In this document: in pieces, positions 4,929-60,812 of the stretch
Position numbering within the stretch: the stretch's first letter is position 1
Layout of the letters: each line of letters opens with the position of its first letter
Virus record (IMG/VR): IMGVR_UViG_3300029286_000011
Strand: one strand, 5' to 3'
Length of the DNA stretch: 64,000 bases
From: a virus
Lineage: Duplodnaviria > Caudoviricetes
Notes under the pieces: generated by a model
Databases searched by the model: none
The model's input: only the letters and a program-made list of their open reading frames with translations
What the model was told of the DNA's origin: nothing
Translations under genes and position numbers: made by a program

Positions 4929-4956
4929 GAGATGTAATTAGCGCTAATTACATCTC
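4929..4956. promoter_or_regulatory. 28-bp perfect palindrome, copy 1 of the TAATTAGCGCTAAT motif
   Basis: GAGATGTAATTAGC|GCTAATTACATCTC; supplies the TAA stop of the upstream gene and lies about 50 bp upstream of the radical SAM gene. Confidence 0.75.
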
Positions 4957-7072: not shown

Positions 7073-8134
7073 CTATCCGCCTACCCGACTGGGCACTTTC
7101 GTTTCTGTCACGTAAGTTTCAGGGTCGGGCAACGGTGTACGTGCCCACTCGATCGCCCTGTTAAACGCCTTTTCCGCTGCCAGCTTCTGCGCATCGGTGC
7201 ATTCACTCCACACACCGGATTCGAAGAAGTACCACTTGTCGGCTTCCTCTTCTCCGACGACACGTGTGACACGCTCTAGAGCCTGCTCACGTGACCTACC
7301 AATCTGCACAGTACTGGCCTTGGCTCGCACCGTAGAACCATCGCCAAAAACCTGAACAGAGCAACGTCCGATCGATAGCACTGAACGATTACCGGCCCTT
7401 TGCGAAGAATCATTGCCGGCTATCTGAACGGATTCTGACGCTGCATGCTGACATGCGTAATTACCCGCAACCTGTGTTGCGCTATAGCCTGCTCGCTGCA
7501 TTGCATACTCGTTGGCAACTTGCAGACCTCTATCGTGCGCACTTTGCAGGGCGTAATGAGTGGCAATCTGAACAGAAGACTGTGATGTCCTCTGCATTGC
7601 CTGGCTGCCGGCGTGTTGAACGGACAGCCAGCCTGATGACTGAACAGCCTGGTCAGCAGCCTGTTGGTACGAGCAGTCGCTAGACTGTTGCATGGCATAT
7701 TCGCTTGCGCACTGGACAGACGATTGTCTGGCGACCTGCGTAGAATTCCAGCCACAAGACTGCAGGGCTGATTGTGCGGCAACTTGTATCACATAGTCTC
7801 CACCGGACTGCCGCGCGCTTTCAATCCGATTATCCATCGAACAGCAGTGGTACTTGCGCCACTCAGGCAGCTCTGCACGCACACGTTGTTCAGCATCAGC
7901 TGCGTTGTACCAGTCAGGTAGATCGATCTCGGCCTGGTCTGTTCGGAACAACCAGCTATCAATCGGTAGGTCATACTGCCAGTCCTTAGGAGACAGCTCG
8001 ACACTGACGGTATTAGCGCCTCGTACGCCGGCTGAGTGCAGGTCGAACTCTTCGATAATGTCGGAGTGCCTATTGGTCTTCTTCGACCAGAACACACGGT
8101 CTTTAGTCAACACAAAGGATGCAGGGTTACACAC
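7073..8134 (-). CDS. octapeptide-repeat (beta-helix) protein
   Basis: about 19 tandem 8-aa units, nearly all starting with Q (QVAAQSAL, QSCGWNST ... QRAGYSAT, QIAGNDSS). Confidence 0.7.
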   Translation of the reverse strand: MCNPASFVLTKDRVFWSKKTNRHSDIIEEFDLHSAGVRGANTVSVELSPKDWQYDLPIDSWLFRTDQAEIDLPDWYNAADAEQRVRAELPEWRKYHCCSMDNRIESARQSGGDYVIQVAAQSALQSCGWNSTQVARQSSVQCASEYAMQQSSDCSYQQAADQAVQSSGWLSVQHAGSQAMQRTSQSSVQIATHYALQSAHDRGLQVANEYAMQRAGYSATQVAGNYACQHAASESVQIAGNDSSQRAGNRSVLSIGRCSVQVFGDGSTVRAKASTVQIGRSREQALERVTRVVGEEEADKWYFFESGVWSECTDAQKLAAEKAFNRAIEWARTPLPDPETYVTETKVPSRVGG

Positions 8135-8186
8135 AGTATTATCCTTGTACTGTTGATGGCTGTAGCTAGAGAATGTGCGTAGAAGA

Positions 8187-8993
8187 CTAGCGCTGCCAGT
8201 ATGCAGCTAGCTTATCTTCGTAGCCTTCGCCCTGAGCGAATGGCGGCTGCATGGATTTAGAGCACCACACGATGTCCGTATTGGCGCGCATGTACATATC
8301 CGCATCGATGACCCATTCGCCTGTGCTCAGTCCGCACCAAGACAGGGCAGTATGTGCCATCGTGGGTGTACGTCTGCGTTCCAATTGCAGCGTGCTGATG
8401 AAGTCCATGTAACAGAAGTAGGGTATCTCCGTGCAGCAGAAACGGACGCCATGATCTTTGGCGTCAGGTCCGTACTGTGCAATCAGCTCCCTGTGCTTCG
8501 GCCCGTTGAAGTCGAAGAAGTAGTCGTAGGGAAAGCCTACGAGCTGATTAGCTGTCTCGACAGCCTTTTCTTTAGCTATCGCAGGCAGCAACGGACGCAG
8601 TACACACGAGTAATCGCTCCAAAGCAAATGTGCAGCAGATCGCCGCACAACGCCTTCGGAGATAGCTTCCACGCACATACCATCTTCAACGGCTAGCCCC
8701 GCGTGGATAAGGGAGCCGCCTATGGCCAGATTGCTCAGATAGCCTTCGTCACGGTGCAGCAGTATGTCGCCAGGCTCTACAAGCGAGTTCGTGACATGTA
8801 GAGCCTCATCCAGCGACACCTTGTTACGCCACGAATACCATCCAAGCATGAATGGGAACTTGTCCCAGCCCAGCCAACGAAGATCGCCAGGCAGGAAGAC
8901 AAGATAGCGGAAAACCCTATGCAACAACGGCAGTTTGCTCTCAGAGTAACCTGTGCAAGCCTCAGCCAGTGTCGTAAGGGTTTTCATCTGCAT
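8187..8993 (-). CDS. permuted papain-like NlpC/P60 amidase (YiiX/YebB family)
   Basis: PGDILLHR...HAGLAV...EAISEGV...VGFPYDYFF...FCCTE; His precedes Cys. Confidence 0.8.
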   Translation of the reverse strand: MQMKTLTTLAEACTGYSESKLPLLHRVFRYLVFLPGDLRWLGWDKFPFMLGWYSWRNKVSLDEALHVTNSLVEPGDILLHRDEGYLSNLAIGGSLIHAGLAVEDGMCVEAISEGVVRRSAAHLLWSDYSCVLRPLLPAIAKEKAVETANQLVGFPYDYFFDFNGPKHRELIAQYGPDAKDHGVRFCCTEIPYFCYMDFISTLQLERRRTPTMAHTALSWCGLSTGEWVIDADMYMRANTDIVWCSKSMQPPFAQGEGYEDKLAAYWQR

Positions 8994-9005
8994 GGTGCGT
9001 CCTGC

Positions 9006-9473
9006 CTATCGAATGTCTTCCAGGTCGTACACAAACCACTTGTCGATGCATACGCCACACTTAGCCGCAGAGTCAGCTATGTCCTTCTGCCATGTCGAGC
9101 AGCATGTGACAAACGTCTTACCGTACTTGCGAATCAGGGAATAGTCTGAACCGTACTTAACGCGTTCATCGGCCAGCATGCGCTTCATAGACGCTATCGG
9201 ATCTTCGTCAAGCGCAACAGCCTCAGGCAACTGTGAGTCGGCTGGTGCGTAGCAAGATATAAACACAACCAGATCGCCATCTTCAAGCTCAAAGTCCCTG
9301 GCAACGTCTTGAAACGTCTTATCGACACCACGGCGTACAGTCACATAGAAGTCAGAGAACTTGTCACTCTCTGATCGAAGCATGTCGAACTTGAATCCGA
9401 CCGTCGAGATGATATCGGACTTATAGGCATGACAGCCCTTGACACCGTACCAAGCAATTCCGATCCCGGTCAT
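9006..9473 (-). CDS. hypothetical protein directly downstream of the 35-bp array
   Basis: 155-aa ORF with GAGG Shine-Dalgarno at 9480-9483. Confidence 0.6.
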   Translation of the reverse strand: MTGIGIAWYGVKGCHAYKSDIISTVGFKFDMLRSESDKFSDFYVTVRRGVDKTFQDVARDFELEDGDLVVFISCYAPADSQLPEAVALDEDPIASMKRMLADERVKYGSDYSLIRKYGKTFVTCCSTWQKDIADSAAKCGVCIDKWFVYDLEDIR

Positions 9474-9486
9474 TAGTACCCCTCAA

Positions 9487-10785
9487 TTCTGTTGTCCGAG
9501 TGTGTGGTTACTAGCAGTGGTTGATGTTATCGAGACTGATGGTTACTAGCGCGAAGTGATGTTGTCAGTGCCAATGGTTACTCACGGTGCATGCTGTTGT
9601 CTTGTGGTTTGGTTACTCGTTCTGCCTGATGTTGTCTTGTTTTTTGATTACTTGCATCCCATGCAGTTGTCAATGGCTGTGGTTACTCACACTTATTGCT
9701 GTTGTCGCCATCAATGATTACTTCCGATGACTGCGGTTGTCTCAGGTGCTGATTACGCGTGGGGATTCAATTGAGTGGATGTTGTCAGCGCTAAGGATTA
9801 CTCGACGAGGATGCTGTTGTCTGGGGGCATGGTTACTCGTGGACGATGCTGTTGTCCGGTAGGTTGATTACTCGTTTGACCTGCTGTTATTGGGTCCAAT
9901 GATTACTCGCACGGGTTGATGTTATCTTTCTTCCTTGGTTACTCGCGGTACTTGAGGTTATCGTCGTCGGTGGTTACTCAACGTCGGTGATGTTATCGAC
10001 TTGATTGGCTGTTCTGCGTTAGTGCTGTTATCGGTTGATCTGATTACTCGGACATTGTGATGTTGTCTGGGAGCAGTGGCTACTCTCGGAGGGTGCTGTT
10101 GTCTGGGAGCATGATTACTAAACAGTCGTGCTGTCGTCGCTTGGCTTGATTACTCGCTGTCAATGATGTTGTCTGTGGGGCTGATTACTCGGACATTGTG
10201 CTGTTGTCTGGGAGCATGATTACTAAACAGTCGTGCTGTCGTCGCTTGGCTTGATTACTCTCGGAGCATGATGTTATCGATGCGTTTGGTTACACGAGTG
10301 TAATGCTGTTGTCACGGTCTTTGGTTACTCGGACAGCGTGATGTTGTCTGGAGCAGTGGTTATTTGGCCTGCGTGATGTTGTCTGGACCGATGATTACTC
10401 GCCACCAATGCTGTTGTCGTAAGGTGTGATTACTCGTGGACGGTGATGTTATCCGGTAAAGTGGTTACTTCAGGGGTCTGCTGTTGTCACGGCATTTGGT
10501 TACTCAAACTATGTGATGTTATCGTGGCGTGTGATTACTCAAGTCGCATGCTATTGTCTGAGACTTTGATTACTCCGGGTGCGTGCTGTTGTCTGGGACA
10601 TTGGTTACTCCGGGTGCGTGCTGTTGTCTGGGACCTTGATTACTCTCTGAAGATGCTGTTGTCGTATCAACTGGTTACTACAGCGTGGTGATGTTGTCTC
10701 GGGCCTTGGTTACTCCTGGCGACTGATGTTGTCTTAACGCGTGAGTGCTCAAACCTAATGCAGTTATCATAGTGTGTGAATGCTT
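9487..10785 (-). ncRNA. TIGR-like dual-repeat/dual-spacer array (36 x 35 bp), putative guide-RNA array
   Basis: + strand unit TGRTTACTC-N8-TGMTGTTRTC-N8, repeat starts at 9505, 9540 ... 10707, 10742; not a multiple of 3, no long ORF; fills the gap between two minus-strand genes. The array itself is certain; the guide-RNA function is inferred. Confidence 0.75.
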
Positions 10786-10795
10786 AGGGAAAGTA

Positions 10796-13762
10796 TCAGG
10801 CGCTCGGGGCAACGGTTGTTGCCTGTTGCGATTTAGCTCGAATCTGTGCCAGAGCAGGCTTAAGCTGCTTAAGAATATAGTTCTGCATTGTTTCGCTCTT
10901 ATTAGCCCGCTGCAGTAACGCCAGGGTCTTCTCAGGCGTGTAGCCATACTTGGCCATGGATGTCATCAACTCCTTGTATTCCTCTGGTGTGACCTTCAGA
11001 TCATTCATGAGCCAGGGGAATTGCTGCTGAGCGGCAATGAATTCAGGCGAACCTACAGCCGCCGCAGGTGCAGCGCTGGGCACCGGACTTTCAGCGCCTG
11101 GAACTGGCACAGCTGACGGAGTAGGCGTCTCTTCACCACCCGCGCTAGCAGGCACAGCAGCTGCCTCAGGCGGTACGGCAGGAGCCTCAGGCTGCTTGCC
11201 GCCGAGGTACTGTCCGATTGGGCCGGGTATGTTGTGGCCAAACAAGCCTAATGCACCAAGGCCGAGGCCGGCTGCCATAGGCAATCCGCCACCTTCGCCT
11301 GATGCAGCTTGGTATCCGCCGTACAGCAACGGCAGTATAGCCATCGTCGTCATCCACTTCTGCTGTGGGGACAAATGGCCATATCCAAGCATCTCGAATA
11401 TCGGATCGAAAGGCGTTGTCTGTGCGGGTTGCTCAGGTGTTACCGTGCCCGTCACGTTAGCCTTGGGCAGCTTCTCCAACGGTGCGGCAGGCTCTGGCGA
11501 TGCAGGCTGCGCTGAAGGCGCATTGCTGCCAGGTACACCCATATCTGGCATAGGCACCGGAGGAACTGCACCCTTGGGCATAGGCATCTGAGGCATTGGT
11601 ACTGGCGGTACAGCGCCCTTAGGCCCAGGGTATTGAGGCATAGGCACTGGCGGCACCTTGCCAGGCGTCATGGGATTTGTCTGGGGGTTAGGCTGCGCTG
11701 GAGCTGCAGGCTCAACTCGAAGGGCGTTGTCTGCTGGAGTACCGGCCTGCTCTTCATGATGTTTGATTATCGCCTGTACCAATTCGTTATTGGGATCTGA
11801 CGCCATGTCATCAACAAGCTTGTTAGCGCCTACATCATGCGCCCTGTCGATCAATGCATCGGCTGTGGCTAGACCAGCGCCCATGCTCAATGTCTTGTTG
11901 GCCATAGGTCCGACAACAGGCGTTTGCGGATGCAGGCTCAGAGCCTTCAATCCCTTATCCACTATGCCATTTCTGCTTATGAGCTGCCTGCCCTTACCTG
12001 CGCGAAGAGAAGCACGAAGTCCACCGGCACTTCCACCAACCAATCCGCCGGCAAGAGCCATATCGCTGTCTTCACCTGTTATGGCCTTATTGCCAACGTC
12101 ATAGGCAAAGCCGGCGCCACTACCACGAATTGCACCGCCCAGCGTGTTATCGACTATCGTTCGCGGTACACGCGGCAGGGACTTCGTTATGCCCTTCACA
12201 GCGCCATGAGCTGCACCAAGACCGCCGAGCGTATTGGCAAACGTGCCATCTTCTTTGCCAGTAATCTTGTCTAAGCCGGCACCCAAGGCATAACCACCAG
12301 CGCCCTGTGCAACAGGCTTAACGACAAGGTTCTTCACAAGGCCGGGTGTTTTATCGGCTACAGACTTGGTTGCTTTGACAGTTGCCGACGGTATGGCTTT
12401 AATGGTTCCTTTAACGATATCAGTAAGGCCGCTGAGCTTGATCAATGGCATGAGATCATCGGCAGACTCAGGCGTGACTCGTATGGCCGTTTCAGCGGCC
12501 TTGATGATGTCTGCATTCATGTAGCCCTTGTCAGTCAGCGTGAACAGGAAACTGAGGGCAAAGTCGGACAGTTCAGCCAGCTTCTCTGTGCTGTCATCGT
12601 CCTTGCACACACAAGGCGACAGATTGCACGTTTCACACAGATTGCGATCAACAGGGATCGTCTTATGTTCACTGGCTTTGGCAAGCATGGCAGAGTTCTC
12701 CAAGTCTTTAGGTTTAACGAGCGACTTGTACAGTTGGCGGCCTATTTCACCGGCACCTACCAGTGAGCCACCTATTCCAAGCCGTCGAAGACCGCTAGGT
12801 AATTTACGAATGAACGGCAGCGGATTGAGTCCGGTGAACGTATTGATAGCTGATGGCACCATCTGGATTGCTGTGGGCGCTGCAGCTACAGTCTTAGACA
12901 AACCCTTGCGTGCCACAGGGCTAGTCATGACGTCTGCAAATAGACTCATAAGCTGGCGGCGACTGATCGGCTCGTTGTGGCTGACACTGGCCAGCGTGCT
13001 GATCATAGTTGGTGATATACCCTTAAAGGCCTTGCGACCTATCAAATTCTGTACAGCGCCTATAGCTGCCCTTGGTATGGCTGCTGACTTCTCGGCAGCC
13101 CTCACAGGCAATTGATTAGACGCAAGCAATGTACGCAACACAGCTCTACGCGCCTTTGTAGCCGCAGGATTCATGCCACGATTTATTCGGGTGTTCTGTA
13201 GGGCTGTGATCAGAGAACGAAAGCGTATATTCTGCAAGGCTGATCGTGTGTCTGTACCTCGCTCTTCATCCGATACAGGATCACCGACCTCACCAGTGCC
13301 GAAGTATGTGCGACTGCCACGATACTTAGCTCGACGTGCATCGTTAGCCTGATTAGTCCATTCGAATGTAACCGGATCAATAGGCAGCAAACGAGGATTG
13401 TGCAGCTTGTAGCCTGCCTCTTCTATGAACTCACGAGCACCCGCCTGCTCCAACGTCTCACCGTCTTCAACGCCGCCACCAAATGCACCATGGTTCTTGT
13501 CCTGATCGTAATAACCGCCAAGAACTTTGCCCGCCTGATTAAGGCCGAACATCTCTATTCGATCACGGTACGGACGCGAGTCATCAGCCTTTTTCTTAGC
13601 TTTCGGAGACTTGATCTTCTTGATCACGTTGGTGTCCTTCTTCGACTTGTCGATAGGCTTGCTAGGCTTGTCGATACGCAGCTTGCCAGGCACGCTGTCC
13701 TGCAGCTTACCAATAGGCTGCATGCCCTGCGTCATCAGCGCTATGAGCTGGCTTAGTGTCAT
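10796..13762 (-). CDS. large putative virion protein with N-terminal Nudix hydrolase domain, Gly-rich and Pro-rich regions
   Basis: Nudix box GGGVEDGETLEQAGAREFIEEAG; Gly/Ala-rich hydrophobic repeats; PVPMP repeats. Confidence 0.75.
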   Translation of the reverse strand: MTLSQLIALMTQGMQPIGKLQDSVPGKLRIDKPSKPIDKSKKDTNVIKKIKSPKAKKKADDSRPYRDRIEMFGLNQAGKVLGGYYDQDKNHGAFGGGVEDGETLEQAGAREFIEEAGYKLHNPRLLPIDPVTFEWTNQANDARRAKYRGSRTYFGTGEVGDPVSDEERGTDTRSALQNIRFRSLITALQNTRINRGMNPAATKARRAVLRTLLASNQLPVRAAEKSAAIPRAAIGAVQNLIGRKAFKGISPTMISTLASVSHNEPISRRQLMSLFADVMTSPVARKGLSKTVAAAPTAIQMVPSAINTFTGLNPLPFIRKLPSGLRRLGIGGSLVGAGEIGRQLYKSLVKPKDLENSAMLAKASEHKTIPVDRNLCETCNLSPCVCKDDDSTEKLAELSDFALSFLFTLTDKGYMNADIIKAAETAIRVTPESADDLMPLIKLSGLTDIVKGTIKAIPSATVKATKSVADKTPGLVKNLVVKPVAQGAGGYALGAGLDKITGKEDGTFANTLGGLGAAHGAVKGITKSLPRVPRTIVDNTLGGAIRGSGAGFAYDVGNKAITGEDSDMALAGGLVGGSAGGLRASLRAGKGRQLISRNGIVDKGLKALSLHPQTPVVGPMANKTLSMGAGLATADALIDRAHDVGANKLVDDMASDPNNELVQAIIKHHEEQAGTPADNALRVEPAAPAQPNPQTNPMTPGKVPPVPMPQYPGPKGAVPPVPMPQMPMPKGAVPPVPMPDMGVPGSNAPSAQPASPEPAAPLEKLPKANVTGTVTPEQPAQTTPFDPIFEMLGYGHLSPQQKWMTTMAILPLLYGGYQAASGEGGGLPMAAGLGLGALGLFGHNIPGPIGQYLGGKQPEAPAVPPEAAAVPASAGGEETPTPSAVPVPGAESPVPSAAPAAAVGSPEFIAAQQQFPWLMNDLKVTPEEYKELMTSMAKYGYTPEKTLALLQRANKSETMQNYILKQLKPALAQIRAKSQQATTVAPSA

Positions 13763-13820
13763 GCTACTTGCCTTCTAGCACCCGTCACGCGAATGTGGTT
13801 GAGGACCCGCATATGCGGCC

Positions 13821-14522
13821 TCACATTGTCACTACTACTTCCCATTGAGCTACCACATCGGGGTTCAAGTCGCGGATCGGTTTAGGCCCGAGCTTCTCAT
13901 CGTACTTGACAGTGTCTACTGGGGAATCAATGGGTACCACACACGGGTCATCGGTGGACCGTACACAGCGGCCAGCCAGGAGCTTCATCGCAATCGACGA
14001 GCGTCCAACGCCACTCTTGTACTCGTTGATGACTTGCACCACGTCTGAGACGAGCACGTGGCATTTGTGTCCGTGCCATACGGACCAAGAGAATCGCAGG
14101 CCCATGGCCCTGAGAACACCCTCGCCGGTGTCCTTGTCCTGCTCGAAGCTGGGCATTCTGATCCACACGCCCTTCCTGGCCTTGCGAAGCATGACCTGAA
14201 TCACCGCGCTAACCCATTCCATGTTGGGCAGGTGCTCCAAGAAGTCCCAGGCCAGATAGTAATCCGCCTCGGGCAGCTCTTCCAAAGCACCGTCTGCCGT
14301 GAGATCCAAGCACCGAAAGCGCAACCTACGAGACTCAAGATCCGCTCGAAAGCGTTCCTGTATGTCGATTCCCAGGCACTCGGCCGGGTCGATGCTGCGT
14401 ACAAGCGGTCCGTAGTACATCGACCCGCGACGGATGAACTCAGTAATGCCGTTGCCCAGTTTGCATCCCAGTTCAACCACCTTCAGCGTCGTTTCCGTCA
14501 TTGATTGCTGTGCATATGCCAT
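13821..14522 (-). CDS. SAM-dependent methyltransferase
   Basis: VVELGCKLG, LGIDI, DYYLAWDFLEHLP. Confidence 0.75.
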   Translation of the reverse strand: MAYAQQSMTETTLKVVELGCKLGNGITEFIRRGSMYYGPLVRSIDPAECLGIDIQERFRADLESRRLRFRCLDLTADGALEELPEADYYLAWDFLEHLPNMEWVSAVIQVMLRKARKGVWIRMPSFEQDKDTGEGVLRAMGLRFSWSVWHGHKCHVLVSDVVQVINEYKSGVGRSSIAMKLLAGRCVRSTDDPCVVPIDSPVDTVKYDEKLGPKPIRDLNPDVVAQWEVVVTM

Positions 14523-14524
14523 CG

Positions 14525-16399
14525 TCAGCCTCCGTTGACCAGCCTTGCATATGCGCAGCAGAACTTCATCGAGGCCTGCTTGTCGTCCAGCCCCAGCGTC
14601 TTGACCTTCTTCTTAGGCCGCATGGCTTTGTACGCACCAATGCCGCCAAGACCAACCAAGCTAGCTGCACCAAGCCCTGTAGGCCACGGATACTTCTTAG
14701 CGAAGTCCATAGGTGCCTTAGTGAACTCACCCCAGCTTGCGCCAGGATTCTCAGCCAGCTCACTGAACTGTGATACAGGGGCCTTACGCCACTCTGCCAA
14801 CAATTCGTCGTACGCCGTCTGATCCTTAGCGCCAGCCAGCGTAGATTGCAGTATCGACTGCGGTGTAATAGGCCGCTGACTAACAGCCGTCGTGAACTCG
14901 GGGCTATGCTCAAACACAGGCTTAACCGGTGCAAGCATATTGCGGATTTCTTCCAAGCTAGGCAATGCACTTTTGACTGCAGCAGTCTTCTTCTTTGCCT
15001 TGGGCTTTGCCTTGGACTTGGCTTTTTCCTTTGCTACCTCGTCCGCTTCGAATTCGTCTGTAAGCCGCCACGACTCAAACTCATCTGCCGGTGTAGCAGG
15101 ATCGGCAGCATCAGAGTCCGTATAACGTGATGGATTCATATCCCGTAGCGCCATGGAGGCAAGCATCGAACGCAGATAAGGGTTGTTCACCTTTGTCGGA
15201 GCATAACTACGATCTATCGCCCGTCCAACAGTGGCATAGTCACGTGCCGGAGATGAGAACAATCGCGTTAGCATTCGCGGCTCTTTTGTACGTGCTGCAT
15301 CCAGAAAGATCTGCCCCAAACCGCCGGCAGAGTCATGAATGTTGGATGCAATGGGCACAGGCTTGGCGAGATCCTTCCAGAATATACCGGCCGCTTTCTC
15401 TTTAGACTCTTCAGACTCGTCAGGCGTCATATAGAGGCCACCTAGATAACCACCAAGACCACCCAATGCACCGCCAAGAGCACCGGCATGCGGATTGTCA
15501 TTGGCAGCCAGACCCAGGTTGCTACCGACATTAAATCCAAGGCCAGCCAGCAATCCACGAATGGAACCCTTACGCCCATTCGCCAATGCACCAACGCCTG
15601 CACCGATCATAGGCGCAGCCGCCATGCTACCGGCAGCACCAGCCGGGCCTGAATGCAACAATGCATCATTAGCACTTACAGCCTCGTTGCCGAGTGTGCC
15701 TATCAATGCGCCCAATGCACCACCGCCAATCGAAGCGCGTTTGCACGATACAGCAGCACGTTTTCCTAGCGATGATACCTTCATAGTATCTTCCTGCGTT
15801 TTTTGGGTTTTCGACTTCCTGTTCTTACCCGGTTTATCTGGCTTAACACCAGCAGGCGGACGCTTGTAACTATCCGTGGCCATACCTGCCAATGAAGCGG
15901 GCGTTAAACCAACGGAGACGCATGTAGAGGCCACCTTAGGCCCTGCAGGCGTAATTGGGCGCTTAAGTCCCTGAGAGCCCTGTGAGGGCCCACCGGGCCA
16001 ACCTGGAATTCCTGTAGGCTGACTATGCACTTCAGGCATCATATTGATATCCGGCACCTGTTCAGTAACCGGACCTTGCCCAGGAGCATACGTAACACTG
16101 CCCTGTGAGTTAGGCATGAATCCCTTCGTCGGTGCCTGCGGAGGCATAGGTGCGGGTGCAGCCTGCGGAGGTGGAGCCTGAGGAGCTTGCTGTGGTTGAG
16201 GAGCAGCTGGCTGAGGAGTAATCGTCCTCTGCTGCTGTATAGCCGCTGCCTCCTGCACACCCTGTGTCGTAGCTGCACCACCAGGACCACCAGGACCAGA
16301 TGTAGCGGCAGCATTAACACCCATAGCCGTAGCCGTAGGCGTTGCAGGCCTAAGAGTCATATTCTGCATAGCTGGTTGCGTGCCAGGTGCAAGTGACAT
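14525..16399 (-). CDS. Pro/Gln/Gly-rich putative virion protein
   Basis: 624-aa low-complexity ORF with glycine-zipper-like segments and K-x-A motifs. Confidence 0.65.
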   Translation of the reverse strand: MSLAPGTQPAMQNMTLRPATPTATAMGVNAAATSGPGGPGGAATTQGVQEAAAIQQQRTITPQPAAPQPQQAPQAPPPQAAPAPMPPQAPTKGFMPNSQGSVTYAPGQGPVTEQVPDINMMPEVHSQPTGIPGWPGGPSQGSQGLKRPITPAGPKVASTCVSVGLTPASLAGMATDSYKRPPAGVKPDKPGKNRKSKTQKTQEDTMKVSSLGKRAAVSCKRASIGGGALGALIGTLGNEAVSANDALLHSGPAGAAGSMAAAPMIGAGVGALANGRKGSIRGLLAGLGFNVGSNLGLAANDNPHAGALGGALGGLGGYLGGLYMTPDESEESKEKAAGIFWKDLAKPVPIASNIHDSAGGLGQIFLDAARTKEPRMLTRLFSSPARDYATVGRAIDRSYAPTKVNNPYLRSMLASMALRDMNPSRYTDSDAADPATPADEFESWRLTDEFEADEVAKEKAKSKAKPKAKKKTAAVKSALPSLEEIRNMLAPVKPVFEHSPEFTTAVSQRPITPQSILQSTLAGAKDQTAYDELLAEWRKAPVSQFSELAENPGASWGEFTKAPMDFAKKYPWPTGLGAASLVGLGGIGAYKAMRPKKKVKTLGLDDKQASMKFCCAYARLVNGG

Positions 16400-16440
16400 A
16401 AGACAATGCTCCCTTCCTGGGAAGAAAAGACGTATAGATG

Positions 16441-18750
16441 TTACTTGCTGCCAGTGCAGTAAGCACGCACACCAACCTTAGCCAAGCGAATGGAAAGCTC
16501 AGCCTGTTGAGAAGCTGTCTTCTCTGGGTACGTTAGACCTACAGCCGTACGTACGTCGTTCAGATCATGTATGCGCTGTGCAAGCTTTACGAGTGTGACA
16601 AAAGCCTGCTGCTTCCTGTACGGCCATGCACGCTTGATAATAGTCTCTGCCAATGCGTGCAAGATGGCCGTCTTCTCTGCGGACAAGTGCATACCGTACT
16701 TACGACGTGACTGTATGAAACGACGAATCGGGCCATTGCCATTAAATATGCGGCGACGGCCATAGGACGCAGGATAACCACTCGCAGGCGTAGCAGGAGC
16801 CTGTACGGGTTCCTCTATCGTGTCCTTTATGTTGGCCATAGCCGATGCAGGAGCCGCGTCATCCATAGTGAAATTGGCTGCAGGATGCTCAGGTGCAGCT
16901 GCAAGCATATTGCCACCGTTAGGCGCAGGTGCTGATGCAGGAGATGGAGGAGCCATCATAGAAGCTGCACCTATGCCAAGCCTAGAAGCCAGCGATCCGC
17001 CATAAAGCGATCCAGCAGGTGCGGCAGCATTCGCAGCAGCCATACCTTCTATGGGCGCAGATGCACCAATAGAGATAGGCGGCTTGGGAACACTGGCACT
17101 CATAGAGGCCATACCAGGTATAGGCGCAGATGCACCAACAGACAAAGGCTCAGGAGTCGGCGCAGGAGCCTGCGGTGCAGCCATAGGCCTGGGCGCATAC
17201 ATAGGAGCCTGCCTACGGAAACCAAAACGAGCGCTAGTCTTCATCGATAACGGTTTCGCAGGCTTGGGTAGGCTAGATGCAGTTACAGGAGAAGGCTTAG
17301 GCTTGTATCCACCCTGCCACATATTCGTCGGGAAATCCGGTGCCGCCATGGGCTTCGGTGCCGAAGGTGTTACAGAGATCGAACGCTTAGGCGCTTGCGC
17401 AACAGGTGCAGGTGCAGGAGGAGGCTTAGGTACAGATCCGTACGTATCGACATTAGCACTAGGTAGCGGTGTAGACGCTCCTGGGGCCAGCCTAGCACCA
17501 GGAACCGTAGGAGCAGGAGCAGCCGGTTGAGTCGCTTGAGGTGCCGGTGCTGGAGGTTTCGGTAACGGCGGCGGCGCTGGAGGCGGCACAGTGTCTTTCA
17601 CATTAGCCATTGCTACAGGAGCAGGTGCAGCCTGCGGAACAGGCCTTTGTACATAAGTGCTGCCCATCTGATTACGTGCATTGTTGCCCGTGACGTTAAT
17701 GGCCGCAGCCGTACCAAGACCAGCCACATCAGGCATAGGGCCAGCTGTGGGCATAGGATTGGCAGCAGCTATATCCGCAGGTATCGGAATAGCTCCAGGT
17801 CCGTTGTACGAAGGCATACCAGGAGCTGTGCCAGACATGACAGTAGACTGACGAGGACGGTACGCAGGGCCACCAGCATTAGCAATGGCCCGTGTTTCAC
17901 TCTGTAGCTGCCTGAACGCTGGGTCAGACTGCAAACGACCTCTCGTAGCTGCGTGCAAACCATTGGCAGACGAGTCCACAGACGGCGGTGGGCCAGAGAA
18001 TGTCTTCTGAGCAATAGGTGACTCTTGACCACCCATAGCACCACCAAGATCGGCTGTAGACTTAGCCTGTGCATACTCGCGTGTAGCTGCACGATCAGCC
18101 TGCAGCTGCTGTATCTGCTCCGGTGTGAAGCGATCACTCACATTGCCGCCATAACGCTTCAATGCCTCAGGGCTGGCATTACGAAGCGTACTGCGCATGT
18201 AACGACGCTCACGAGCAGCCATCTCTTCACCACGATTGCCAAGACGACCCCAGTTGGCCGGCAAAGGCTCTGCTTGTCCCTTAGCCTGAACAGGCGCAGG
18301 TGCAGGGGCAGGCTCAGGTGTCGGCTCAGGAACAGGATCTTTGATGTTGGCTACGGCCGGTGCAGGAGTTGGCTCAGGCGCAGGTGCCGGAACCGGAGGA
18401 GGCGGCGGTGTAGACACGGGCTGCCATGACGGCGTGCCAAAAAAGGCCGAGGCCGCAGATTGGCCAAGCATTGCGTCGGATAAGCCACGATCTGTATTGC
18501 CAGAAGAGCTTAGTCCAAATAGCGGTACGCCGTTGGCAGGACCGACAGTGAACTCAGGCGCAGGATTGGCTCGCCTGGCATCCAGCTGCGGTGTATTGCC
18601 GCGTGCAGGTCCTGGCTGAGTCAAAGGCGTGTACGGCCGATTGGTAGACAGCGAGTTAGCAATGCTGTCCAATGCCGATGAGGTTGCCTTTGAGCTATCG
18701 GGCAGCGAGGCAGCGAGCTGACCTAGATCCGACACGTTGACAATTGGCAT
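16441..18750 (-). CDS. Pro/Ala-rich putative virion protein
   Basis: long ORF, likely start MPIVNV at 18750; internal repeats AN(I/V)KD x3 and S(V/I)GASAPI x2. Confidence 0.65.
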   Translation of the reverse strand: MPIVNVSDLGQLAASLPDSSKATSSALDSIANSLSTNRPYTPLTQPGPARGNTPQLDARRANPAPEFTVGPANGVPLFGLSSSGNTDRGLSDAMLGQSAASAFFGTPSWQPVSTPPPPPVPAPAPEPTPAPAVANIKDPVPEPTPEPAPAPAPVQAKGQAEPLPANWGRLGNRGEEMAARERRYMRSTLRNASPEALKRYGGNVSDRFTPEQIQQLQADRAATREYAQAKSTADLGGAMGGQESPIAQKTFSGPPPSVDSSANGLHAATRGRLQSDPAFRQLQSETRAIANAGGPAYRPRQSTVMSGTAPGMPSYNGPGAIPIPADIAAANPMPTAGPMPDVAGLGTAAAINVTGNNARNQMGSTYVQRPVPQAAPAPVAMANVKDTVPPPAPPPLPKPPAPAPQATQPAAPAPTVPGARLAPGASTPLPSANVDTYGSVPKPPPAPAPVAQAPKRSISVTPSAPKPMAAPDFPTNMWQGGYKPKPSPVTASSLPKPAKPLSMKTSARFGFRRQAPMYAPRPMAAPQAPAPTPEPLSVGASAPIPGMASMSASVPKPPISIGASAPIEGMAAANAAAPAGSLYGGSLASRLGIGAASMMAPPSPASAPAPNGGNMLAAAPEHPAANFTMDDAAPASAMANIKDTIEEPVQAPATPASGYPASYGRRRIFNGNGPIRRFIQSRRKYGMHLSAEKTAILHALAETIIKRAWPYRKQQAFVTLVKLAQRIHDLNDVRTAVGLTYPEKTASQQAELSIRLAKVGVRAYCTGSK

Positions 18751-18752
18751 TA

Positions 18753-19019
18753 CTAAGCTCCTACGGGATCCGTCCCCGAAATGTTGTTCAACAGAGCAAC
18801 GCACAGCTGATTAAGGCTTGTGCGCCGTTTGTGCGATTCGTCCTTGAGCGCCTGATGCAATGCGGCAGGTATACGCAATGATACCGGCCGCATGTCCATG
18901 GTCTGTAATTGACCAAAGTCGACAAGCTGCCGAGTGGACTGTAGTTCGTAGAGTTCGTTTATGGCGTTGGCAATCTCTTGCAGACGCCCTTCCGTGTCGT
19001 CGGAACGGAATACAAACAT
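18753..19019 (-). CDS. ribbon-helix-helix DNA-binding protein
   Basis: RPVSLRIPAALHQALKDESHKRRTSLNQLCVALL (Arc/HicB C-terminal-like). Confidence 0.7.
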   Translation of the reverse strand: MFVFRSDDTEGRLQEIANAINELYELQSTRQLVDFGQLQTMDMRPVSLRIPAALHQALKDESHKRRTSLNQLCVALLNNISGTDPVGA

Positions 19020-19110
19020 TGTTGCTGTTTCCCTGTGGATTCCGTTACTGCGCTAGCTAGTTTTCATTATACGGAAGGGCGTCTGCATTACCTAGGCGGC
19101 TAGATAACGG

Positions 19111-19713
19111 CTACCATGACGACGAAGGCGTAGAGCCTGGCGGCGGGTCAGCTCGGATGACATCAGGCGAGTCGTTAGCAGGCGTATCAGATACAGCCAC
19201 CCAATGAAATAGGTCGTCTGATGCGTTTTCCTCTTCATCCTCTGACTCGTCCTCTGGCTCGTCCTCTGGCTCATACTCTGACTCTTCGTCATTAGACTCG
19301 TATTCATCTTCATCTTCATCTTCTTCTTCGTCGTCATCATCACGGTAGCCATCAAGCTCAGATTCTTCTTCATCGTCCAACCGCAGCTGATCGTAGTAGC
19401 CGTAGTTGAACGAGAAATATATGAGCCTAATGCCTACAGCATAAAAGCCTAACAATATTCGCTGTAGCGCTGGACTGAAGCCGGCAGCAGTAAGCATGGC
19501 TACTGACATGCTTCGACCAGAAGCCATATCGATCAGTACGACCATGTCAGACGTGAAAGCTACGCTGAAACCAGGTGCGCTATAGCCTAGTGTTGCTCGA
19601 GCAGATAAACGCCTACGGTCCTCAGACGTTATATGGTCGAAATGCACAAAGGCCAGCTTGCTTGACTCATTAGCTATGAACCGACAAAAGTCTTCAGGAA
19701 GATCAAAGGCCAT
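19111..19713 (-). CDS. hypothetical protein with acidic C-terminal tract
   Basis: likely start MAFDLP at 19713; D/E tract. Confidence 0.65.
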   Translation of the reverse strand: MAFDLPEDFCRFIANESSKLAFVHFDHITSEDRRRLSARATLGYSAPGFSVAFTSDMVVLIDMASGRSMSVAMLTAAGFSPALQRILLGFYAVGIRLIYFSFNYGYYDQLRLDDEEESELDGYRDDDDEEEDEDEDEYESNDEESEYEPEDEPEDESEDEEENASDDLFHWVAVSDTPANDSPDVIRADPPPGSTPSSSW

Positions 19714-20301: not shown

Positions 20302-20323
20302 GAGATGTAATTAGCGCTAATTA
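20302..20323. promoter_or_regulatory. palindromic motif copy 2
   Basis: GAGATGTAATTAGCGCTAATTA, between a terminator and a start codon. Confidence 0.75.
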
Positions 20324-20335
20324 AATTCACCAATG

Positions 20336-32480: not shown

Positions 32481-32506
32481 AGATGTAATTAGCGCTAATT
32501 ACATCT
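32481..32506. promoter_or_regulatory. palindromic motif copy 3 (26-bp perfect)
   Basis: AGATGTAATTAGCGCTAATTACATCT; supplies the RuvC stop codon and lies 20 bp upstream of the next gene. Confidence 0.75.
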
Positions 32507-42092: not shown

Positions 42093-42112
42093 GATGTAAT
42101 TAGCGCTAATTA
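42093..42112. promoter_or_regulatory. palindromic motif copy 4
   Basis: GATGTAATTAGCGCTAATTA, between a terminator and the recA start. Confidence 0.75.
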
Positions 42113-60290: not shown

Positions 60291-60812
60291 TCAATCAGTT
60301 GGGATGTAATTAGCGCTAATCAAATCCATATGCAGAATGTCTTCAAGATTGTTGATGGAGACTGCTGCCGTACTGAGTTCAACATCACTGTTTTTGTAGT
60401 TGGCTCTCCAACATACATGAGGTCGACTGCTGCTTGATCTTCCTGTGTGCACTGTCAGGTACGTTGTATGACAGACCGTTGGATGATCTAGCCCTACCAG
60501 AGTTGTCAGACCGTCAGGTAGAACAACACCTTGACCCTCTGACAACTTGTCGATGTCGATTCTTGGATCATCATCAAGCTGAAGCACTGCACGCGACAGA
60601 CAGAACGAGGCTGACTCGTCAGCACCACACCAGAACTCCATTGCGTATAGCTCCGAGTCTGTCAGTTGCAGCAGCTTCAGTTGGGCTGCTCGTACTTTGA
60701 ATCGTCTGACCGTGTCTCGTGTTACACGAATCAGTGCATAGTTACAGTTGCCTGTCGTATCCGTGACTGGCAGCACTAGCCGTCTTGGGGCACCTGTTAT
60801 CAGCGCCGGCAT
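60291..60812 (-). CDS. hypothetical protein
   Basis: 173-aa ORF; its 3' end contains motif copy 6. Confidence 0.6.
   Translation of the reverse strand: MPALITGAPRRLVLPVTDTTGNCNYALIRVTRDTVRRFKVRAAQLKLLQLTDSELYAMEFWCGADESASFCLSRAVLQLDDDPRIDIDKLSEGQGVVLPDGLTTLVGLDHPTVCHTTYLTVHTGRSSSSRPHVCWRANYKNSDVELSTAAVSINNLEDILHMDLISANYIPTD
60303..60322. promoter_or_regulatory. palindromic motif copy 6 (one mismatch)
   Basis: GATGTAATTAGCGCTAATCA. Confidence 0.65.

Follow-up and report, generated by a model that had tools for sequence, protein, structure and literature searches.

Positions 9487-10785 of the window, the 64,000-nt stretch of DNA analysed here (IMG/VR virus record IMGVR_UViG_3300029286_000011, Caudoviricetes), hold a genuine TIGR-type array of the dual-repeat class, probably read on the minus strand. 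The array is most probably part of a TIGR-TasA system of a freshwater jumbo phage of ~209 kb in which guide array and effector are split: P0122, a protein whose structure model identifies it as a nuclease-less Tas protein of the TasA type, is encoded ~39 kb away on the same strand. The box layout of the array and, nearly, its repeat sequences are shared with arrays adjoining TasA and TasH genes, which supports the TIGR-type reading put forward in an original prediction made from the letters of the window.

The dual-repeat array and its setting

TIGR arrays are defined by two alternating repeats of 8-12 nt, termed edge and loop, with box C before and box D after each short spacer; spacers of dual-repeat arrays are ~8-12 nt long, and the unit-length tigRNAs processed from the arrays are bound by a Nop-domain Tas protein (Faure et al. 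2025, PMC12045711). In the window, 37 repeats of 9 nt alternate with 37 repeats of 10 nt and are separated by 8-nt spacers, as found by a pattern scan and by a minus-strand walk from 10785 to 9487. The plus-strand repeats read TGRTTACTC and TGMTGTTRTC at steps of 17/18 nt (pattern scan), giving on the minus strand, in the sense of the genes, the unit GAGUAAYCA-N8-GAYAACAKCA-N8. Three spacers are longer than 8 nt: two measure 9 nt, in 36-bp units, and one 18 nt, in a 45-bp unit (~9741-9785). Tandem Repeats Finder assigns to the array a period of 35, together with the multiples 70 and 105. The original prediction of 36 dual-spacer units of 35 bp, with two units of 36 bp and one of 45 bp, is thus reproduced. 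Its label of a "35-nt, 8+8 variant" applies to the unit length; the 8+8 spacers are no variant, since the published SpTIGR array has 8-nt spacers. In the 64-kb window the exact consensus of either repeat is confined to the array, matches elsewhere carrying 1-2 mismatches (pattern scan).

Both repeat types share a GA...CA box D/box C layout, with GA at the start in 27-37 of the 37 copies (36-37 at position 2) and CA at the end in 36-37. The canonical motifs of TasR are UG...CCA, and divergence from them is allowed if the box motifs covary (Faure et al., PMC12045711). For a symmetric dimer the covariation rule demands a common start, and edge and loop repeats of the window both open with GA. The repeat positions are conserved in 33-37 of the 37 copies and most spacers are unique (32/34 for spacer A, 34/37 for spacer B). 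Of the 37 edge repeats, 34 have C7 or U7 opposite G3, which fits the extra edge base pair described for TasR. The layout of the unit on the minus strand marks this strand, the sense strand of the surrounding genes, as the probable RNA strand. Arrays next to two relatives of P0122 (loci L068 and L071) open with a 5'-truncated copy of the GAG..CCA-type repeat, so that by homology GAGUAAYCA would be the edge and GAYAACAKCA the loop repeat. A degenerate edge repeat lies at either end of the array, and the one at its start fits the published rule that TIGR arrays open with a 5'-degenerate edge repeat.

The array occupies the entire gap between the stop codon of a gene coding for 988 amino acids (aa; stop at 10796-10798) and the ATG of a 155-aa gene (9473). 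Its first repeat lies 10 nt from the stop and it runs into the GAGGGG ribosome-binding site of the 155-aa gene, coordinates that agree with the original description. Both flanking genes are on the minus strand, as are nearly all genes of the window. No Rfam family matches the array, megablast of the locus against 50,697 phage records gives no match, and exact repeat-pattern scans of viral and metagenome collections yield single chance matches only and no related array. The 988-aa protein could be part of the virion or be ejected, its head then having decapping or pyrophosphatase activity.

The TasA-type protein P0122 and its relatives

Exact-protein look-ups place the window in a population of ~209-kb jumbo-phage contigs of lake metagenomes. 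Contig k141_2774619 (ena:ERZ27250635:k141_2774619, 209.5 kb) is 99.9% identical over window positions 7844-19473, with three differences in the array. Downstream of the array and on its strand, this contig carries the 443-aa open reading frame (ORF) of P0122 (L067:11474-12805). The distance from array to tasA is ~38.8 kb in the genome of the window and 41.2 kb in the ENA contig, which has a 2.47-kb insertion. No Tas gene is found in the window itself, where a profile of 120 TasH homologues detects nothing in the six-frame ORFs; this profile is too narrow, P0122 being its top match with a non-significant E-value of 0.98. The 102 kb examined, made of the window and 38 kb of extra sequence, cover positions ~7.4-112 kb of the 209.6-kb record and contain no further Tas-like ORF.

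A sequence search of the PDB with P0122 gives weak matches to an IS110 transposase and to 9mty, a TIGR-TasR structure, and its homologues (~266-350 aa) mostly carry Pfam PF02371. Its structure model, built on 30 homologues, has a predicted local distance difference test score (pLDDT) of 86.8. In a Foldseek search of the PDB with this model, TasH and TasR chains take the first ten places and IS110 recombinases come next. VIA-align gives Z 17.8 to TasH (220 residues, root-mean-square deviation 2.9), 16.6 to TasR, ~13 to IS110 enzymes and 6.7-7.5 to Nop5 and Prp31. Profile-profile comparison of the P0122 and SpTasH families extends the homology over 226 columns including the C-terminal GH loop (probability 98.9%, E 1.8e-17). 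The GH motif of P0122 contains an invariant His, H414, that aligns with SpTasH H296. Structural similarity sets in at residue 80 of P0122, which corresponds to TasH residue 64, past the HNH domain, while residues 1-80 form two helices and disordered stretches. Sequence, model and structure comparison give P0122 no N-terminal HNH or RuvC domain and no match to a nuclease family. Since the match begins after the HNH domain of TasH and the preceding residues are helices and disorder only, P0122 is, as modelled, a nuclease-less Tas protein of the TasA type. The 80-residue N-terminal extension and a helical insert of ~70 residues are common to some relatives.

The relatives at L068, L070, L071 and L072 belong to the protein family of P0122 at 27-39% identity, and four of the five relatives whose neighbourhoods were compared directly adjoin dual-repeat arrays, with units of 36-37 nt. 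P0123 (L068), the closest at 36% identity, has an array GAWAACAKCA-N8-GAGCGUAGCCA-N8 directly after its gene, with a loop repeat almost identical to the GAYAACAKCA of the window. The gene of P0134 (L071) is accompanied by a GAGUGAAYCA / GAGAGUACCA array followed by a terminator, and here the edge repeat is that of the window plus one G. Arrays of GAGCGCAGCCA / GAYCGAACCA flank the P0124 gene on both sides, and a ~1.7-kb dual-repeat array (GAGCGAGCCA / GAGAGCACCA, period 36) precedes that of P0149 on a 113-kb contig (L072:2000-4000). No array was found near P0122, which is encoded in the genome of the window array itself, ~39 kb off rather than adjoining. From these sequence relationships we infer, and consider the inference strong, that P0122 pairs with the window array.

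The P0149 array is longer than that of the window, and many of its repeats are degenerate. The TasA homologue P0146, encoded beside a portal gene on an 83-kb phage contig (L073:4001-5029), has no array within 4 kb and might be another example of an array that is distant or missing.

The earlier view that the effector does not adjoin the array holds, with a neighbour of NUDIX and low-complexity sequence and a TasA-type gene ~39 kb away. The partner first proposed, a 327-aa protein (53823..54806, minus strand), does not, as it shows no Tas or Nop similarity by sequence or profile. It has no match in Pfam, PHROG, PDB or phage databases, reaches hhalign probabilities of only 0.2-0.9% against the TasA and TasH family profiles, is not matched by tblastn in the 50,697 phage records and has four homologues only; its model (pLDDT 45.6) is too poor for a fold search. 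The 988-aa upstream gene product was likewise rejected as effector, being composed of NUDIX and low-complexity sequence with no similarity to SpTasH.

A few features of these regions are recorded in their own right. The weak model of the 327-aa protein opens with a beta-beta-beta-alpha-beta-alpha-beta order like that of RNase H/RuvC-type folds; its gene lies between an SbcC-like gene (54803-56923) and a helicase gene, with an Mre11/SbcD-like metallophosphatase at 56913-58055. The tasA gene is flanked by dTDP-sugar and nucleotide-sugar genes and by genes for an RyR-domain protein and adenylosuccinate synthase. ThiF/E1-like and JAB-like genes are found near one another in L066/L067 (record 88.9-96.9 kb). 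The 2.47-kb segment of the related 209-kb contigs codes for proteins of 288, 43 and 329 aa and is absent from the window (window 7844-8154 compared with L059:11320-14104). It is flanked in the contig by two copies of a 311-bp stretch that is single in the window, and looks like an insertion/deletion polymorphism arising from recombination between direct repeats.

Array variation, guide targets and possible function

The array is near-unchanged in several lake metagenomes, and the sequencing runs that contain it are all DNA runs of lake-water metagenomes. Units 10645 and 10610 are one spacer base apart and other unit pairs share 11-12 of 16 spacer positions. A freshwater metagenome contig is a deletion variant lacking 105 bp (three units) of a duplicated block. 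In a low-depth contig six substitutions fall within 26 bp, five of them in spacers, the sixth restoring the repeat consensus. The near-duplicates, the 105-bp block and the clustering of substitutions in spacers point to growth of the array by duplication and divergence: it appears that units are duplicated and their spacers then diverge by point changes. Spacers are C-rich on the RNA strand (36% versus 25% background, p ~1e-9). At the sequence level, the pattern of variation fits selection on an RNA product.

The 33 distinct guides were searched against the 102 kb of phage genome, with the array masked, in a target geometry of spacer A followed by the reverse complement of spacer B that derives from the reported 3' overhangs of TasR cuts. 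No guide has an exact match in this sequence. With up to two mismatches the geometry gives 8 matches versus 1.7-2.4 expected, while the other three geometry/phase combinations, including reverse complement of B followed by A and loop-bounded pairing, stay at control level. All eight matches come from the unit at 9769-9812 and all lie on a dispersed palindrome; 1,056 mispaired spacer combinations give at most three. Of the 33 guides, one rises above controls in the 102 kb. Spacer A of this unit matches the palindrome in full and spacer B at 5-6 of 8 positions. The copy at record positions 83,125-83,140 mismatches spacer B at its positions 1 and 3, which the published seed does not include. The unit is also the most irregular of the array: both of its box C motifs are CC, not CA, and it is followed by a degenerate edge repeat carrying 10 additional nt.

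The palindrome has the consensus AUGUAAUUAGCGCUAAUUACAU, a form of ~22 bp (ATGTAATTAGCGCTAATTACAT) and the core UAAUUAGCGCUAAUUA, with arm variants AAUUACAU, AAUUAAAU and AAUUGCGA in the phage. Nine copies occur in the 102 kb versus ~1.5 expected for the 8-nt core. They lie between genes, as a rule 15-35 nt ahead of a start codon and in some cases directly past a terminator hairpin. The palindrome is a candidate phage promoter or operator. The copy at 20305..20326 may serve in this way for the transcription unit to which the array belongs. The guide of unit 9769-9812 may act on this own motif of the phage, act on a rival's variant of it, or be a neutralised self-match.

We favour the following course of events. 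The array would be read from the minus strand, most likely within a long string of same-strand genes that includes the 988-aa and 155-aa genes; co-transcription with these flanking genes, possibly from the palindrome at 20305-20326, is plausible. By analogy, the transcript is probably cut inside the edge repeat GAGUAAYCA to yield 35-nt tigRNAs composed of the 3' half of an edge, spacer A, GAYAACAKCA, spacer B and the 5' half of the next edge. These would load onto a dimer of P0122, whose gene and fold are in hand and whose pairing with the array is the strong inference given above. The DNA site recognised by each ribonucleoprotein (RNP) would span 16 bp, with the sequence of spacer A preceding the reverse complement of spacer B. 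TasA proteins act as RNA-guided transcriptional repressors (preprint 10.64898/2026.09.09.750476). Because P0122 lacks a nuclease, its RNP is expected to bind and block rather than cut. Most targets probably belong to the host, to rival mobile elements or to the other half of the phage genome.

Several observations weigh against a working split system. The 35-nt unit is one nt below the uniform 36 nt described for dual-repeat tigRNAs in the latest survey. On the minus strand the promoter/terminator scan finds for the array neither a terminator nor a recognisable sigma-70 promoter of its own. P0122 has His407 in place of the Tyr of the published Y/H processing dyad, at a position where the family has Y, F, W or H, and self-processing is therefore uncertain. 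Of the 33 distinct guides, 32 lack a match with up to two mismatches in the 102 kb. Finally, about half of the genome has been seen, so a second Tas gene closer to the array could lie on the far side. Such a gene, for instance a TasH or TasR nuclease encoded in the remaining ~100 kb of the record, could be the true partner, in which case the guides would direct cleavage. The resemblance of the repeats to the TasH array of phage CGphi29 would suit this possibility; the closest repeat matches, however, adjoin relatives of P0122 itself (the loop of P0123 and the edge of P0134), and we hold a different Tas partner to be quite unlikely.

The 39 kb that separate the array from the tas gene, as against the adjoining arrays of four in five relatives, could also be the mark of an orphan or decaying array that is no longer used, P0122 working with other RNAs or neither component being active. 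Degenerate first and last repeats, the 45-bp unit with CC box C motifs and the replaced Tyr would be in line with such a history. Decay would nonetheless erode repeats and spacers alike, whereas the repeats are kept and the spacers vary, a contrast repeated in the substitutions of the low-depth strain variant. The constancy of the array across lake metagenomes and the failure to find a substitute array near P0122 also argue against disuse, which we consider unlikely. The short repeats could instead be DNA sites for a protein, in an iteron, centromere or operator array, their fixed 35-bp period phasing the binding sites; some TasA loci are linked in the literature to ParB-like genes. This is highly improbable, given that both repeats match, in sequence and box layout, experimentally processed arrays and arrays beside TasA homologues. 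The strand asymmetry of spacer C content fits an RNA product better, and the spacers of one unit match a genomic site only with one of them inverted, as tandem-spacer RNA targeting predicts. A split TIGR-TasA system thus remains our preferred interpretation.

A bolder extension of it is that the phage directs the system at its own promoter-like palindrome or that of close rivals, and that the array documents the origin of spacers by duplication and divergence with no adaptation machinery involved; we regard this as rather unlikely as a whole. If true, the guide of unit 9769-9812 would read a palindrome heading many operons, including those of the array and of tasA, and the TasA RNP could tune the transcription of the phage. 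Alternatively, it would silence a competing relative with an exactly matching palindrome variant, a possibility suggested by the 2-3 positions at which the guide mismatches the phage's own copies.

Table 1. Coordinates of the array, its neighbours and the dispersed palindrome in the window.
Feature	Position	Strand	Description
TIGR dual-repeat array	9487..10785	-	36 complete units, then a degenerate one; 9-nt edge GAGUAAYCA, 8-nt spacer A, 10-nt loop GAYAACAKCA, 8-nt spacer B
First repeat	10777..10785	-	degenerate edge type AAGCAUUCA; 10 nt past stop of 988-aa gene
Degenerate last unit	9471..9504	-	loop-type GACAACAGAA, then 8 nt with GAGGGG ribosome-binding site, then remnant UACUAAUG overlapping ATG of next gene; without terminator
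Unit matching dispersed palindrome	9769..9812	-	spacer A UUAGCGCU, spacer B ACUCAAUU; tandem geometry A followed by reverse complement of B
Tandem duplication	10093..10302	-	105 bp (three units); one copy missing in a freshwater metagenome contig (joint 10092 to 10198)
Upstream gene, 988 aa	10796..13762	-	N-terminal NUDIX motif and long Gly/Pro/Ala-rich low-complexity regions; not Tas
Downstream gene, 155 aa	9006..9473	-	no family match; ribosome-binding site inside last array unit
Palindrome cores	4939-4946, 20312-20319, 32490-32497, 42101-42108, 59180-59187, 60311-60318		further copies in L066/L067
Nearest upstream palindrome copy	20305..20326	.	directly after terminator-like hairpin

Comparison with known systems

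Published TIGR neighbourhoods were mined within ~5 kb of tas, and the latest survey leaves open the arrayless tas branches, the natural targets and the origin of spacers. The present case touches each of these. An array and its likely effector 39 kb apart form a pair that tas-centred searches would miss, and some "arrayless" Tas proteins may have distant arrays. TIGR-Tas was reportedly described in 2025, with arrays catalogued only around tas genes. The phage's own intergenic palindrome is a candidate natural target for a nuclease-less TasA. Near-duplicate units and strain indels are concrete evidence for the genesis of spacers by duplication and divergence.

The SpTIGR-TasH system of Salicola phage CGphi29 (PDB 9W03 and related) has 16 nt of spacer per guide and a processed array (Faure et al. 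2025, PMC12045711). From its genome record and autocorrelation, this array reads AAGACAACCA-N8-AAGCGAGCCA-N8, directly downstream of tasH and with a terminator at its end. The comparison with known TIGR arrays that the original prediction suggested thus shows repeats resembling those of CGphi29 as well as those beside TasA relatives. Like the window array, the CGphi29 array is phage-borne and of the dual-repeat class, has 8-nt spacers and repeats ending in CCA/YCA, and lies directly downstream of a same-strand gene. SpTasH and P0122 have in common a coiled coil and a Nop fold (Z 17-17.8). The CGphi29 unit is 36 nt long with box D AG (AG...CCA), whereas the window unit is 35 nt with box D GA. 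SpTasH has an N-terminal HNH nuclease and adjoins an array with terminator; the effector assigned here is nuclease-less and 39 kb off, and its array has no terminator.

TIGR-TasA systems (FpTasA and the repressors in 10.64898/2026.09.09.750476) are closer, with a nuclease-less coiled coil and Nop fold, edge/loop repeats, and DNA binding and repression expected to be RNA-guided, as for P0122. Published TIGR arrays are upstream of, downstream of, flanking or inside tas, whereas that of the window lies between unrelated genes 39 kb away. Arrays of the P0122 relatives at L068, L070, L071 and L072 have GA...CCA-type repeats and 36-37-nt units and abut tasA; the window array is distant and has a 35-nt unit. 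Orphan CRISPR arrays far from cas are alike in being guide arrays used in trans by a distant effector. Their RNA architecture, effector family and targeting mode are unrelated, TIGR guides having two short spacers that address opposite strands with no protospacer-adjacent motif. The departures from known TIGR-TasA systems are the 39-kb split, the unrelated neighbours without a terminator, the 35-nt unit and a guide matching the phage's own palindrome. They leave the known mechanism unchanged; the phage is instructive as a case but does not represent a new kind of system.

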